This document shows positions 4,244-44,546 of a stretch of 59,049 nucleotides of DNA, one piece after another; positions within the stretch are counted from its first letter, which is position 1; each line of letters starts with the position of its first letter. A program made the translations under genes and the position numbers. A model generated the notes under the pieces. It worked only from the letters and a program-made list of their open reading frames with translations. It searched no databases and was not told the DNA's origin. Origin of the DNA: a virus (Duplodnaviria > Caudoviricetes); IMG/VR virus record IMGVR_UViG_3300035145_003654, positions 1 through 59,049 of that record. One strand, written 5' to 3'.

Positions 4244-5037
4244 AAAAACAAGCAGTATTGTCACTGAGTGGAGGTATGGACAGCTCCACAGTGTTACTTC
4301 ATCTACTCGCCAATGGCTATGAAGTGACGGCACTGTCTTTTGATTACGGACAAAAACACAGGGTTGAACTTGATCGAGCCCAATCATTAGTTAATTATCT
4401 TAATAGTAATGGGCAAAATGTAAAATACGGAACTATTAAACTTGATGGTTTAGCTCCTATGCTTAATAGCGCCCTTGTAGAAGGAGGTGATGAAGTACCT
4501 GAAGGTCACTATGAACAGGAAAACATGAAGGAAACAGTTGTTCCTAACCGTAATAAAATTTTCTCATCACTAATCCAAGCTGTAGCATTATCAATAGCAA
4601 ATGAAAAAAATACTGAAGTACATATCGCGATGGGTATTCACGCAGGTGACCATGCTATATATCCCGATTGCAGACAAGAATTTAGAGACGCTGACTATAC
4701 AGCCTTCACCGAAGGCAATTGGGACGCTGAGCGCGTTAGCTATATTACCCCTTATCTTAATGGCGACAAGTTTGATATACTGCGAGATGGTATGGACGCC
4801 TGTGGGCGATTGGGATTATCATTTAACGAAGTTTATAAACGTACAAATACTAGCTATAAGCCCATTAATATTGGTGATGAGTGGTTTAGTGATTATAAAT
4901 CGGCTTCTTCGGTCGAACGCGTCGAAGCGTTTATCAAACTTGGCCAACCGGATCCTGTCGAATATGCTGATGAGACTGGACCCGTGGGATGGGATATTGT
5001 AAAAAATCATGTTGAACAAGTTTTAGCTGAAGCCTAA
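4240..5037 (+). CDS. queC: 7-cyano-7-deazaguanine synthase
   Basis: SLSGGMDS PP-loop, FDYGQKH, VPNRN, YPDCR. Confidence 0.95.
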   Translation: MKKQAVLSLSGGMDSSTVLLHLLANGYEVTALSFDYGQKHRVELDRAQSLVNYLNSNGQNVKYGTIKLDGLAPMLNSALVEGGDEVPEGHYEQENMKETVVPNRNKIFSSLIQAVALSIANEKNTEVHIAMGIHAGDHAIYPDCRQEFRDADYTAFTEGNWDAERVSYITPYLNGDKFDILRDGMDACGRLGLSFNEVYKRTNTSYKPINIGDEWFSDYKSASSVERVEAFIKLGQPDPVEYADETGPVGWDIVKNHVEQVLAEA

Positions 5038-5495
5038 TGTTTATCTCAACTAAAATATTTGATGGATTTAGCTGTGTGTTTCGTCAGTGGAAAGCTGAAG
5101 GAACACACTGCCGATTCCTCCATGGTTACGGAATCTCGTTTAAAGTATGGTTTAAAGGAGAATTAGACGAACGTAATTGGGTTTGGGATTTTGGTGGTAT
5201 GAAACGTGCTAAAACCGAAATTGATGGTATGAGTCCTAAAATGTGGATGGATCACATGTTTGATCACACTATGCTTGTAGCAGTAGATGATCCATTTTTA
5301 GAATCATTTAGACGAATGGATGAAGCTGGGGTAGTCCAACTTAGAGAAGTCCCAGCAACTGGGGCAGAACGTTTTGCTCAGTTTATTTATGAAAAGCTTA
5401 ACAAGTTTGTATTGGAAGAAACAGATGGACGTGTTAGGGTTATGAAAGTAGAATTTAGAGAACACGGAAAAAACACAGCAATCTATGCCGAATAA
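5037..5495 (+). CDS. queD: 6-carboxy-5,6,7,8-tetrahydropterin synthase
   Basis: HCRFLHGY, WVWDFG, FDHT, TGAE and terminal E...NTA motifs. Confidence 0.92.
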   Translation: MFISTKIFDGFSCVFRQWKAEGTHCRFLHGYGISFKVWFKGELDERNWVWDFGGMKRAKTEIDGMSPKMWMDHMFDHTMLVAVDDPFLESFRRMDEAGVVQLREVPATGAERFAQFIYEKLNKFVLEETDGRVRVMKVEFREHGKNTAIYAE

Positions 5496-6368: not shown

Positions 6369-8444
6369 ATGAAAAAATTATTTTCCTTACTTTTATTACT
6401 CATTACAACCTTTGTCTTTTTTGGACAAGATAAATGTGGCACTGATGCCATTCTAGAACAACAACTGCAAGACCCAGTTTTTGAAAGAAGTTTTAACACT
6501 TTAATGGACGTTATGTCTAATCAATCAAATCGAGCATCCTCTAATGAAACTTTAACTATTCCTGTAGTAGTGCATGTTTTTTATGATGGGGATGACTATG
6601 GTACTGGAACTAACATAGCTGATGAAGTAATTTATGATGCTATTGCTAATCTTAATGCAGCGTTTGCTGGTGAACCATGGCACACTGCACAAGGAGCACC
6701 ATTTGTTCACCCTTATAGTAATTCTAATATTGAGTTTTGCTTAGCCTCTATTGATCCTGACGGCAATCCTACAAATGGCATAACAAGGCAAAACCCAGAT
6801 ACGTTAGATGGGTATTTAACCCAAGGTATGGTTACTACTACATTGTTAGCTGAAACATATGAACATAAACTTAAAGAATTATGTTACTGGCCTGTACAAG
6901 AATATTGTAATATTTATGTTGTACATAAATTAAATGGTGGGTACTCACCATTAGGGTTTGCTTATTTACCACCTAACTCAAGTTATTATGATGGTATAGT
7001 ATGTCACTATCAAGTTTTTGGGTATGAAGAACCATGGTTACTAAGTAATTTTAATTTAAATTGTACACTTATGCATGAAATGGGCCATTATCTAGGCCTA
7101 TTACATACCTTTAGCTCTACCTCAAGTTGTGGACCTGAAACAAATTGTAATGCACAAGGGGATAAATTATGTGATACCCCACCCACCACCGGCTCCGCAG
7201 GTTGCGGTCCATGGGATTGTCCTGACACTATGGTAGAAAATTTTATGGATTATAGTAATGATGACTGTATGGATAGATTTTCGCCTGATGGTGTTACTAG
7301 AATGAGAAACCAATTACTACAATGGAGGGCAGGGTTAGTAGATGAAGACAATTTAGCTTGTGGGATACCAGGAGGTTTAGATGTAAAAATTAGTAATATT
7401 ATAGTACCTAGCGTAGGATGTGACCCTATTATGTCAGATGCAAATTATGAAATAAGAAATTTAGGTTCAGATACTTTAACTGAAACTACAATTAATTATT
7501 ATGTAAATGACCAAACGGGTACTTTAATATGGACAGGTAATTTAGGTTTTGGAGAAGCTGAAATAGTAACTATCCCAGATTTTGATGTAGGATTTGGCCC
7601 TGTTAGTATTACTGTTGAAGCAGTACCTATAGGGGATATTAATAATGAAAACGATGTTGCAACTTTTGAGTATGATAATTATGAAGGTACTTTTGTAGAT
7701 GTAGAAATTGATTTTGATGCACTACCAGCAGGAATTGATTGGAATTTATATGAAGTAGTTGACGGTGTTCCTATAGGTGAACCAATTTTTGAAGCCAATT
7801 ATTTTACTATAGGATTTAATGATTTGTACTCTTGTGGGAATGAAACATATACTTTTTGTCTTCCTGAAGGGGAATATATGGTAATAGTAACAGACCTTTT
7901 TGGTAATGGAATGTATTATACAGGATGCTCTAACGGTGATGGAACTGACGGTGACATTACTATAACAAATGGGTCTGATACTTTAAATTATATAGAGGGT
8001 AATTGGGGTAGTGAAGTAGAGTTACCATTCATAGTAGGACCCCCAGGTTGTTTCCCAGCTACTTGCTATGGAGATGTTGATGGAGACGGATTTATTTGGA
8101 CAAGTGATATACTCATAATGTTACAATATTTTGGTCTTGAAGTAGAGCCTTGTAGTCCCCTTGATACTGATCAAGATGGTATAGTAGGAGTAAATGATAT
8201 AATGGATATTCTAGCTGCCTTTGATACTGATTGTAGTGGCCAATTAGCGCCTGAAGGAGGATTTGAAGCATTTTTAAAAGAGGAAAAAGAAGGAGAATTA
8301 GTAAAAACTACTTTGTATAATATAATGGGGCAAGAAGTTCAAAACACTGATCACCTAGATACAGGTATTTATATAATAGTACAAGAATGGAATGTTCCTA
8401 GTACCGGTACGTTTATTACTAAAAAGAAAATTTTCCGTGAATGA
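6369..8444 (+). CDS. Secreted M43 (pappalysin/ulilysin-like) zinc metalloprotease with dockerin-like repeat and T9SS type A CTD
   Basis: Signal peptide; KCGT cysteine switch; HEMGHYLGLLH; NFMDYS Met-turn; GDVDGDG/DTDQDG Ca-loops; C-terminal LYNIMGQEV..LDTGIYII..KKKI. Confidence 0.88.
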   Translation: MKKLFSLLLLLITTFVFFGQDKCGTDAILEQQLQDPVFERSFNTLMDVMSNQSNRASSNETLTIPVVVHVFYDGDDYGTGTNIADEVIYDAIANLNAAFAGEPWHTAQGAPFVHPYSNSNIEFCLASIDPDGNPTNGITRQNPDTLDGYLTQGMVTTTLLAETYEHKLKELCYWPVQEYCNIYVVHKLNGGYSPLGFAYLPPNSSYYDGIVCHYQVFGYEEPWLLSNFNLNCTLMHEMGHYLGLLHTFSSTSSCGPETNCNAQGDKLCDTPPTTGSAGCGPWDCPDTMVENFMDYSNDDCMDRFSPDGVTRMRNQLLQWRAGLVDEDNLACGIPGGLDVKISNIIVPSVGCDPIMSDANYEIRNLGSDTLTETTINYYVNDQTGTLIWTGNLGFGEAEIVTIPDFDVGFGPVSITVEAVPIGDINNENDVATFEYDNYEGTFVDVEIDFDALPAGIDWNLYEVVDGVPIGEPIFEANYFTIGFNDLYSCGNETYTFCLPEGEYMVIVTDLFGNGMYYTGCSNGDGTDGDITITNGSDTLNYIEGNWGSEVELPFIVGPPGCFPATCYGDVDGDGFIWTSDILIMLQYFGLEVEPCSPLDTDQDGIVGVNDIMDILAAFDTDCSGQLAPEGGFEAFLKEEKEGELVKTTLYNIMGQEVQNTDHLDTGIYIIVQEWNVPSTGTFITKKKIFRE

Positions 8445-21729: not shown

Positions 21730-23648
<1,919 letters not shown>

Positions 23649-42446: not shown

Positions 42447-42532
42447 GCCGCTGTGGTGGAATAGGTAGACACGACAGACTTAAAATCTGTTTCGCCGAAT
42501 GGTGAGTGCCGGTTCGATCCCGGCCAGCGGTA
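42447..42532 (+). tRNA. tRNA-Leu(TAA)
   Basis: Cloverleaf with long variable arm; anticodon arm acaga-cttaaaa-tctgt. Confidence 0.93.
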
Positions 42533-42541
42533 CAAAAGCAT

Positions 42542-42616
42542 GCCCTCGTAGCTCAGTTGGATTAGAGCAACAGCCTTCTAAGCTGTGGGTCACAGGTTCG
42601 AATCCTGTCGGGGGTA
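42542..42616 (+). tRNA. tRNA-Arg(TCT)
   Basis: acagc-cttctaa-gctgt; GTTCGAATC T-loop. Confidence 0.95.
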
Positions 42617-42689
42617 CTAGGTTCTTTACTTACTGGAATAAATAACATTCGCTGATGACGCCACTGCGTAATAAATGGCGCACCAATAT

Positions 42690-42763
42690 GGGAACGTAGC
42701 TCAATTGGTTAGAGCATCAAGCTTATATCTTGGAGGTCGCAGGTTCGATTCCTGCCGTTCCTA
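42690..42763 (+). tRNA. tRNA-Ile(TAT)
   Basis: Acceptor gggaacg/cgttcct; tcaag-cttatat-cttgg. Confidence 0.9.
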
Positions 42764-42764
42764 C

Positions 42765-43109
42765 AAATGAAGGAAACCCCACCGCGCTGATCACGCACGG
42801 GGGGGTATGACTGAATGTGTCCCTCGCTTAGGGGGATAAAGTACACATGCTAATAGGTAGCTCGACTTACAGCAAGCGCTGTAGGGGGTGAAAGCCCAGT
42901 GTGGGCCTATTCAGTGTGTGGTTGTGCGATGTGGAAATAAATTTCTACTAAGCGATATTGTGAACTTCAATTGGGGTTAGCAGCCATGAAGTGAAATGAT
43001 TAATGGGATGCGGGTTTAACACTCCTCTTGTGCCATTATGATTTACCAATACAACCGCCTGCTAGTCGCGCTTAAGAGCCTGAATAACTCTTTACCCATT
43101 CCTTCATTT
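42765..43109 (+). ncRNA. Unassigned ~345-nt structured non-coding RNA
   Basis: Perfect 11-bp closing helix (42765-75/43099-109) and at least eight internal helices. Fills the gap between two tRNAs, is GC-richer than the flanking coding DNA, and has no ORF in the track. Confidence 0.75.
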
Positions 43110-43112
43110 TAT

Positions 43113-43186
43113 GATCCCGTAGCTCAGCTGGTTAGAGCATCTCACTTTTAATGAGAGGGTCCTGGGTTCGAGTCCCAGCGGGATCA
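43113..43186 (+). tRNA. tRNA-Lys(TTT)
   Basis: tctca-cttttaa-tgaga. Confidence 0.95.
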
Positions 43187-43207
43187 CAGCGTGTGAGGCG
43201 AATGCAA

Positions 43208-43281
43208 GCCACTATAGCTCAGTTGGCTAGAGCAGCTGATTTGTAATCAGCAGGTCGCGGGTTCGAATCCTGCTAGTGGCT
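43208..43281 (+). tRNA. tRNA-Thr(TGT)
   Basis: gctga-tttgtaa-tcagc. Confidence 0.95.
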
Positions 43282-43283
43282 CA

Positions 43284-43390
43284 ACCCTTAGTCTAATATG
43301 GGAGACTCGGCCCCTATAAGCCGAAAATATAGGGTCTCAGTGGTCCGACGAGATACCAGACGGACAAGTCCTCACTGCTGAGTGGGGCAA
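43284..43390 (+). ncRNA. Structured, pseudoknot-forming spacer RNA
   Basis: tcggc/gccga stem with loop ccctat pairing ataggg; further tctc/gaga, tggt/acca and gtccg/cggac pairings; hairpin gtcctcact/agtggggc. Confidence 0.45.
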
Positions 43391-43392
43391 TA

Positions 43393-43465
43393 CGGAATAT
43401 GGCGCAGTTGGTAGCGCACCTGCTTTGGGAGCAGGGGGCCGCAGGTTCGAGTCCTGCTATTCCGA
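43393..43465 (+). tRNA. tRNA-Pro(TGG)
   Basis: cctgc-tttggga-gcagg. Confidence 0.95.
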
Positions 43466-43482
43466 CCTGAAGACTGCGTGTA

Positions 43483-43556
43483 GCTCCCTTAGCTCAGTTG
43501 GTTAGAGCATCTGACTGTTAATCAGAGGGTCCCTGGTTCGAGCCCAGGAGGGAGCG
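43483..43556 (+). tRNA. tRNA-Asn(GTT)
   Basis: tctga-ctgttaa-tcaga. Confidence 0.95.
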
Positions 43557-43559
43557 CTA

Positions 43560-43924
43560 AGGAAGTTCTTTGATTTTATTAATAATTAAAAATTAGAAAT
43601 CATGGAAGTATTATTTTACAGTTTAGGTGTGCTTACAGTTGCATTCTTATATGCAGTTGTGAGTGTGTTTAAGTTAAATAAAAAAATAGATTATTTAGAA
43701 AACGTAGTTGAAGAACACAAAAGGCAAACAAATATAGAATATAATGAAATCTATAGAGAAATGGACATTAGAATAAATGATCACGCCACCCAACCACTTA
43801 GGGAAACGAATGAAAATGTGGCACGTGAAGTAGAGGATATTTATCGTATGGTAGATTCTCGTATAGATAAATTAGAAGACCGTTTAACAAAAAATAGCTA
43901 AAAATTAGCAACAAAGAACTTCCT
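43560..43924. repeat. Perfect 13-bp inverted repeat enclosing ORF 43602..43901
   Basis: aggaagttctttg (43560-72) / caaagaacttcct (43912-24). Confidence 0.85.
43602..43901 (+). CDS. N-terminal TM plus coiled-coil protein within the tRNA cluster
   Basis: Hydrophobic residues 1-23; C-terminal DSRIDKLE. Confidence 0.7.
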   Translation: MEVLFYSLGVLTVAFLYAVVSVFKLNKKIDYLENVVEEHKRQTNIEYNEIYREMDIRINDHATQPLRETNENVAREVEDIYRMVDSRIDKLEDRLTKNS

Positions 43925-43927
43925 ATA

Positions 43928-44002
43928 GGTCCCTTAGCTCAGTTGGTTCAGAGCATCTCGTTTACACCGAGGGGGTCACTGGTTCGAGTCCAGTAGGGAC
44001 CA
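43928..44002 (+). tRNA. tRNA-Val(TAC)
   Basis: tctcg-tttacac-cgagg. Confidence 0.95.
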
Positions 44003-44015
44003 CAAATATTAAAAA

Positions 44016-44216
44016 ATGCAAGTTGGAGATAAAATAAAATTTTTTCTATTTGGCGTGGAATCTGAAGGAGAGATTTATAACGTTAACAAAAAGGAAAAAA
44101 CAGTAGATATATTTTGTGAAGGGTATAAATACCCTGGAGTACAAACATTTAGGAAATTACCGAAAAAACAAAAGGATACACCACCCTGGTATATCTTAAA
44201 AACCAAAAACAAATGA
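44016..44216 (+). CDS. Small SH3/KOW-like hypothetical protein
   Basis: MQVGDKIKF...EGEIYNV...TVDI. Confidence 0.55.
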   Translation: MQVGDKIKFFLFGVESEGEIYNVNKKEKTVDIFCEGYKYPGVQTFRKLPKKQKDTPPWYILKTKNK

Positions 44217-44437
44217 AACATTTATTCACAACTGCCCTTATTGTGGGCCTTGCCTCTTGTGGCACAACAGACACCACCACCGACCAGGTAGACTGTCACG
44301 AAACAGACTCAACAGGTGGATTCCTTCCTGACAGTGTAGTAATTAACAACTACCTTGTTACTGATTCGATCGCAAACGTAAGTGATCTTCTTGATACACT
44401 TGCTGCGTACGAGCCAGCAGCTAAAATGACCCACTAA
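44213..44437 (+). CDS. Small lipoprotein
   Basis: Lipobox GLAS-C; Thr/Asp-rich mature part. Confidence 0.7.
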   Translation: MKHLFTTALIVGLASCGTTDTTTDQVDCHETDSTGGFLPDSVVINNYLVTDSIANVSDLLDTLAAYEPAAKMTH

Positions 44438-44446
44438 GGGTCATAT

Positions 44447-44526
44447 GCCTGAGTGGTGGAATTGGTAGACACGCTGGTCTTAGGAACCAGTGCTTCGGCG
44501 TGTGGGTTCGAGTCCCACCTTAGGTA
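44447..44526 (+). tRNA. tRNA-Leu(TAG)
   Basis: ctggt-cttagga-accag; variable arm with ttcg loop. Confidence 0.93.
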
Positions 44527-44546
44527 CAAAATTAAAATTATATCAA

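Follow-up and report, generated by a model that had tools for sequence, protein, structure and literature searches.

The spacer between the genes for tRNA-Ile and tRNA-Lys in an uncultured marine phage encodes a conserved, folded non-coding RNA of ~345 nt on the + strand. We consider this spacer, with a probability of roughly 0.55, to be the gene for an enlarged and divergent relative of the manA RNA motif (RF01745), probably freed by tRNA processing. The manA motif itself is known already, and the enlarged variant is what is new here. Most helices of the RNA keep their pairing through sequence change. The link to manA is weak on score and rests mainly on the architecture of our structural model, in which four elements lie in manA's order inside a putative closing helix and the P4 element appears to have grown from a small hairpin to a 148-nt domain.

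All coordinates refer to the window, by which we mean the whole stretch of DNA analysed (59,049 nt). This 59-kb IMG/VR viral contig has an estimated completeness of 44% and carries genes for ribonucleotide reductase, DNA polymerase, a GroEL-like chaperonin and glycosyltransferases. The GroEL-type chaperonin gene, at 22017-23648, is full-length and matches PHROG 5725 (E = 6e-164). The polymerase is nearest to phage family B enzymes (T4-like), with a best match of 35.7% identity; since all 2673 matching records fall below 60% identity, the phage is without a close cultured relative. The lineage that bears the RNA consists of uncultured marine phages.

Nine tRNA genes form an array on the + strand at 42447-44527. 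The upstream neighbour of the RNA is tRNA-Ile (anticodon UAU, + strand), placed at 42690-42764 by ARAGORN and at 42690-42763 by the Rfam tRNA model (73 bits), so that its 3' end is 42764 or 42763 depending on the program. The downstream neighbour is tRNA-Lys (anticodon UUU) at 43113-43187 on the + strand (ARAGORN; Rfam 73.9 bits). Open reading frames that overlap the Ile-Lys spacer are at most 45 aa long. A Pfam search of 10 neighbouring ORFs returned one methyltransferase and one weak nucleotidase match, and no RNA-processing enzyme among the 10. Promoter-like sites were no more frequent than in shuffled sequence (10 vs 10.5).

The array contains other spacers and reading frames of its own. 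The Thr-Pro spacer at 43283-43392 (110 nt) is conserved relative to a related locus (L008), with paired changes in its 3' hairpin, and its folding is unremarkable (z = -1.02). Contigs from two RNA libraries skip this spacer exactly, joining 43282 to 43393, which suggests that it may be absent from some relatives; it may be another small RNA module. In the Arg-Ile spacer (42618-42689), a hairpin at about 42658-42683 keeps its pairing through a two-sided change in L008, with an energy no better than that of shuffles (z = -0.11). Small ORFs of 99, 66 and 74 aa lie between tRNA genes of the array (43602-43901, 44016-44437) and match no convincing Pfam family. In another phage tRNA array (L007), ARAGORN called a tRNA with the amber-reading anticodon CUA at 4739-4812.

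Homologues of the RNA were sought in the 25 viral loci related through P0001, the 142-aa protein encoded just upstream. The RNA is present in five of these, in the same order Leu-Arg-Ile-RNA-Lys-Thr. A scan of metagenomes with a core-based pattern gave 23 further loci. Of 26 homologous loci, 24 have Ile(tat) upstream, one has a tRNA called Leu(taa) there and one is cut by a contig end; downstream, 23 have Lys(ttt) and contig ends cut the remaining three. Twenty-three full spacers reduced to 18 distinct sequences, which made up the alignment set; these are 345-363 nt long, are 88.6-95.1% identical to the window, and all occupy the Ile-Lys slot. Only one copy is found within the contig. A related phage, L016, keeps the Leu-Arg-Ile-Lys-Thr array (4987-5146) with an Ile-Lys spacer of only 10 nt and no RNA, so the RNA is an accessory element in the lineage. 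When a tRNA-RNA-tRNA query was run by distant blastn against GenBank phages, the 244 matching records aligned only in the tRNA parts, and none covered at least 80% of the query; the window-type core pattern had no match in prokaryote genomes. The homologues, the covariation of the helices and the placement together bear out the claim of an earlier note on this DNA that a discrete, conserved, structured non-coding RNA exactly fills the spacer between two tRNAs.

A nested model of 104 pairs was built by combining the RNAalifold prediction on the 18 sequences with the manA consensus line, and pairing was counted on a MAFFT alignment. Across the 18 sequences, 95.8% of cells are paired. Two-sided changes occur at 12 pairs, a number reached by 1 of 500 shuffles, and in 46 cells, a number reached by none of 500; when the 3' partners were slid by one to three columns, 0-2 double-change pairs and 40-52% pairing remained, although these controls favour the model, since the 18 homologues are closely related and the structure was in part built from them. 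The double changes are spread over nine helices (P0, P3, P3x, P3b, P3c and P4 with one each; P2a, Hc and P5 with two each). RNAalifold run on the same set without guidance from the model recovered P0, P1, P2a, P3, P3b, P4, Hb and P5. No variation is seen across the 18 sequences in the closing helix, in P1 and P2, or in the inner stems of Hb, so the key manA-like junction depends on the ability of its strands to pair and on a template-guided reading.

Folding energy alone proves little. The + strand folds to a minimum free energy (MFE) of -114 kcal/mol (z = -2.36), and 2 of 100 shuffles fold as well. The minus strand gives a lower z of -3.96, and energy alone cannot choose the strand. The model itself has an energy of -96.5 kcal/mol, worse than the MFE. 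The pairs are more telling: G-U is the commonest pair type at nine or more pairs, and since these would become A-C mismatches on the minus strand, only the + strand fits. The + strand is also indicated because the tRNAs and the manA core lie on it.

The outermost helix, P0, pairs 42765-42775 with 43099-43109 on the + strand. Its arms are a perfect 11-bp inverted repeat, 100% complementary, and the sole inverted repeat of at least 9 nt within 42600-43300; pairing holds in 97.5% of cells across the 18 sequences, one A-U pair is replaced by G-C through a double change, and both arms are longer in several homologues (up to about 17 bp). The earlier note was right that this helix closes the whole Ile-Lys spacer and that it ends 3 nt before tRNA-Lys; its start lies 0-1 nt after tRNA-Ile and not the 2 nt that had been given. 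Inside P0 on the 5' side is the P1 hairpin (42776-42806, + strand), predicted by RNAalifold on the 18 sequences, whose core stem spans 42779-42802 and which in isolation has an MFE of -16.7 kcal/mol (z = -2.43). Its 7-nt loop (42788-42794) contains the palindrome UGAUCA and is invariant in 18 of 18 sequences. P1 occupies the same place as the P1 hairpin of the manA consensus structure line. Its stem can be extended to 42776-42806, and in this form it competes with the closing helix for the same run of G residues.

The closing helix, Pc, would join GGGUA at 42803-42807 to UACCC at 43093-43097, both on the + strand. The 5' strand lies 2 nt upstream of the core, and the Rfam manA model puts exactly these bases in its multiloop-closing helix; the 3' strand is complementary to the 5' strand and invariant in 18 of 18 sequences. 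The helix is assigned by analogy, because all five pairs are invariant in the 18 sequences and none covaries. The core that follows (42808-42843, + strand) consists of UGACUGAAU, the P2a hairpin (42820-42836) and UAAAGU, with P2 flanking pairs at 42810-42811/42841-42842. Nowhere is the manA match better aligned than here (posterior marks of the top grade, an asterisk), and two pairs of P2a show double changes.

The multi-branch P3 domain (42844-42920, + strand) has a long stem, 42844-42857/42906-42920, and the hairpins P3b (42866-42885) and P3c (42886-42897). The P3c loop is a GNRA tetraloop (GAAA, GAGA or GGAA) in 15 of 18 sequences, and the hairpin is missing in the other three. Next comes the enlarged P4 domain of 148 nt (42924-43071, + strand). 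Its stem, 42924-42930/43065-43071, was predicted by RNAalifold on the 18 sequences and is 100% paired; the variation in it consists of nine C-G to U-G changes and one double change. The stem encloses the hairpins Ha (42931-42948), Hb (42957-43000) and Hc (43001-43038) followed by a conserved 26-nt strand (43039-43064). The P4 domain has no counterpart of any weight in Rfam, the sole row being PCGEM1 at E = 8.8. The last element, P5 (43074-43092, + strand), is a hairpin with a 9-nt A-rich loop that stands 0 nt from the closing strand; two of its five pairs are double-changed, splitting the set nine sequences against nine.

Most of the helices proposed in the earlier note are confirmed by the 18 homologues. 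Two-sided changes were found at two pairs each in tccctc/ggggga, taatgg/ccatta and aagag/ctctt (in the last, nine sequences differ from nine) and at one pair each in aatagg/cctatt, ttacagc/gctgtag and the GNRA-capped ggg/ccc hairpin, all of which gain support as a result. The helix cttca/tgaag is invariant in all 18, as is atgtgt/acacat (42815/42843), which clashes with P3. The helix accccaccg/cgggggggt is predicted by both MFE folding and RNAalifold, and it varies only by one C-to-U change, which leaves a wobble pair in place. For gtggaaa/tttctac, pairing in the MAFFT columns is only 69.8% because seven sequences are shifted by one column; by eye it still pairs. The proposed gtggttgt/acaaccgc (42918/43051) helix fares less well: it is 93.1% paired with no double change and one pair broken in 9 of 18 sequences, and the region is explained better by the P4 stem. 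Two further pairings came up in the course of the analysis. A possible pseudoknot between the Hb loop and the strand 43059-43064 comprises five invariant pairs, with a sixth unpaired in 7 of 18 sequences. A long-range helix between the P1 region and 43060-43076, predicted by RNAalifold from four sequences, was rejected, as it is absent with 18 sequences and variation in its columns breaks the pairs by eye.

Searches of the 345 nt against Rfam returned manA as the only family with E < 1 (18.6 bits, E = 0.0096), below its gathering cut-off of 55.2 bits; up to E = 10 the only other row was one lncRNA row without structure, at E = 8.8. The view that the RNA is unassigned and possibly new was correct insofar as no family reaches its gathering score and the whole window yields tRNAs only. 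As worded it is otherwise not supported, given that the RNA carries the conserved manA core and, in the model, manA's helix order. The Rfam alignment to manA misplaces the helices beyond the core. Among eight window-type relatives, a manA row appeared at E up to 10 in two (21.2 and 18.0 bits) and in none of the other six; L008 and L043 gave no manA row at E up to 1. No models for group I or group II introns, small ribozymes, tmRNA, RNase P, GOLLD or ROOL matched the 345 nt even at E up to 10, in agreement with the earlier note's observation that tmRNA, RNase P and group I core motifs are lacking.

When compared with manA element by element, the RNA has the core as described in the family (UGACUGAAU, a short G+C hairpin, UAA(A/G)GU and two flanking pairs) with top posterior marks. 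Its P3 junction has a GNRA hairpin but departs from the consensus in how many inner hairpins there are and in their order, and its P5 has an A-rich loop of the 9-11 nt class followed by the closing strand, at 43074-43092. The strands 42803-42807 and 43093-43097 can pair as the manA closing helix does, with matching spacers (2/1/3/2/0 nt in the model vs 2/2/3/1/0 in the manA consensus line), the five pairs being invariant and in competition with the extended P1. Three features of manA are absent. The score stands at 18.6 against 55.2 bits, the single-hairpin P4 with internal loops (~45 nt) is replaced by the 148-nt three-hairpin domain, and the 5' UTR position is replaced by tRNA-Lys 3 nt downstream of the RNA. 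That manA relatives tolerate large insertions is indicated by the locus L042, whose match to manA is 268 nt long at 48.3 bits.

The core was also traced through other viral loci. A strict core pattern found 13 loci, nine of which are manA at 60.7-68.3 bits, and a looser pattern found 42. Fifteen further core-bearing loci were scanned; five pass the manA cut-off (141.7, 84.4, 77.1, 72.6 and 60.8 bits) and 10 fail, with sub-cut-off scores including 48.3, 45.3 and 27.1 bits. The manA scores thus fall gradually, from 141.7 to 18 bits, toward the window type, and do not form two classes. An HMM profile of the 18 sequences, run against the 42 core-bearing stretches, found five window-type copies and, at E = 0.001-0.0036 and over 75 positions, 3 of the 37 others.

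These data have to be set against the reading in which the RNA is an independent, new family, unrelated to manA in descent and in overall fold, whose UGACUGAAU/UAAAGU internal loop and hairpin are a common tertiary module used once more. The score of only 18.6 bits, the six of eight relatives that give no manA row, and the end of sequence similarity to manA copies after ~75 positions are all as this reading predicts; 10 of the 15 loci scanned carry the same core and score below the manA cut-off, and nothing in manA corresponds to P4, the outer helix or the P1 loop. We nevertheless regard an independent family as rather unlikely, as the order of elements, the junction spacers, the P3 GNRA hairpin and the P5 that abuts the closing strand all match manA, the scores are graded, and a canonical manA copy (L046) sits in the same kind of tRNA slot. 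Less likely again is a reading in which the RNA acts in cis within the tRNA operon and does not work as a free trans-acting RNA; as a sensor, insulator or processing platform, for instance, it would adjust how tRNA-Lys and the tRNAs behind it are matured or reached by read-through. Such a role would accord with the first proposal of manA as cis-regulatory (PMC2864571), with several canonical manA copies that lie between a tRNA and a gene start, and with RNA-library contigs that bridge the tRNA-RNA borders (X6 record 21, X8 record 31). It fits poorly with a long helix that seals the ends 0-1 and 3 nt from the tRNAs, which suits excision, and with 345 nt of strong conservation, which is much for a spacer; no terminator-like site was found on the + strand in the RNA or just after it, and in L016 the same two tRNAs are matured from either side of a spacer of only 10 nt.

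The perfect terminal inverted repeats could also be read as DNA signals of a small, non-autonomous mobile insertion and not as an RNA helix. Presence in some related phages and absence from L016 would follow, and paired changes in the arms would equally fit repeats bound by a transposase. This we judge highly improbable: there is one copy in the contig, always in the Ile-Lys slot, with no target-site duplication at the junction by eye and no ORF within the element, and the internal helices covary with G-U pairs that are strand-specific.

Release of the RNA by tRNA end-processing is plausible. The RNA would be co-transcribed with the tRNA array; an RNase P cut at the 5' end of tRNA-Lys (43112/43113) would free its 3' side, and 3'-end processing of tRNA-Ile next to 42763/42764 its 5' side. 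Both ends would then be held by the 11-bp outer helix in an almost blunt stem, which should protect them from exonucleases. Evidence for expression is weak: the RNA is covered by contigs of four RNA libraries, which come from three studies, and some of these contigs bridge into the flanking tRNAs, but contigs cannot show ends and may reflect DNA carry-over.

A cryo-EM preprint from 2026 describes manA RNAs that in vitro form RNA-only closed 8-, 10- and 60-mers from pentamers, held by kissing loops and a GNRA-receptor contact (bioRxiv 10.64898/2026.07.01.735769). The window RNA may self-assemble too, a guess prompted by its retention of the core and GNRA hairpin and its added loops; the palindromic P1 loop and the extra hairpin loops are candidate contact sites. 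It is possible, though the odds run against it, that the RNA is a subunit of a natural RNA-only cage or ring of the manA type, decorated or reshaped by the 148-nt domain and freed from the tRNA operon by RNase P and tRNA 3'-end processing. If so, manA-type RNAs would be structural, compartment-forming phage RNAs and not riboswitches. A natural variant with a large added domain offers in any case a means of finding out which parts are responsible for folding, assembly and function.

Several other loci place manA beside tRNA genes. The canonical manA copy L046 (181-393, - strand; 77.1 bits) exactly fills the gap between two tRNAs, which indicates that the 5' UTR position is not universal in the family, and it has 14 bases in common with the window RNA from the closing strand into the core. 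A 27.1-bit variant, L012 (13765-13934, + strand), lies between two tRNA-Met genes. Neither fits Rfam's cis-regulatory label for manA. The canonical copies L046, L004, L013 and L060 are flush against or between tRNA genes, and in 12 of the 42 core-bearing loci (7 of these 12 not of the window type) the core lies within 50 nt of an upstream tRNA on the same strand. On another contig, L047, the strongest manA copy (141.7 bits) accompanies a PhotoRC-II RNA (66.9 bits), at 311-404 and 6958-7152, both on the - strand; manA is known from this setting in cyanophages. In phage tRNA regions, the tmRNA model also gives short matches (L044 5428-5515, 61.4 bits over 88 nt; L012 3669-3740, 21 bits) that look like tmRNA reduced to its tRNA-like part.

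A connection between manA and tRNAs is absent from the passages of PMC2864571 that deal with manA or with tRNA, and the word tRNA does not occur in the manA preprint (bioRxiv 10.64898/2026.07.01.735769). Among the manA papers listed by literature searches, no title suggests an enlarged variant; the supplementary lists of PMC2864571 and of PMC10690425, the latter with 8,495 unnamed IMG/VR candidate RNAs, may already include the window RNA or manA copies flanked by tRNAs. With the present RNA there is one more indication that unannotated RNA genes concentrate in the tRNA arrays of phages.

Phage RNAs encoded with tRNAs offer the nearest comparisons. RNAC and RNAD of T4, ~120-140 nt in size, are located in the T4 tRNA region and matured with the tRNAs. 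By description only, they resemble the window RNA as small stable phage RNAs encoded with phage tRNAs, and at those sizes they are much smaller. GOLLD and ROOL lie near tRNA genes. Like them, the window RNA is a large, multi-branched, ORF-free phage RNA, for which self-assembly is conceivable by analogy; it differs in being much smaller and in having a manA-type core. What is described of GOLLD and ROOL is that they are large, ornate phage or prophage RNAs that form RNA-only multimers (PMC12286853), and the T4 RNAs are described as small RNAs of unknown function (PMC9697503).

The closest likeness is to manA, an orphan 'riboswitch candidate' since 2010 that Rfam types as cis-regulatory, that has been placed in 5' UTRs (PMC2864571), and for which the preprint now reports RNA-only cages in vitro. 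Both RNAs occur in marine phages and have the conserved internal-loop core with its hairpin. In the model, both would also have a P1 that lies 5' of the closing helix and follow the order P2, multi-branch P3 with a GNRA hairpin, P4 and P5 inside that helix; the manA consensus likewise has a GAAA-capped hairpin in the P3 junction, and P5 stands directly before the 3' closing strand in the consensus and in L046. The window RNA departs from manA in its length (~345 nt vs ~170-215 nt), its extra 11-bp outer helix, its P1 loop (a 7-nt palindrome in place of a tetraloop), its 148-nt three-hairpin P4 in place of a small hairpin, and the tRNA, not a gene, that follows it at 3 nt. With no gene downstream, a cis-regulatory reading as a 5' UTR cannot apply to it. 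An enlarged manA-type RNA that has no gene to regulate, lies flush between tRNAs and is sealed by a terminal helix argues that at least part of the manA class consists of free-standing RNAs from tRNA operons.
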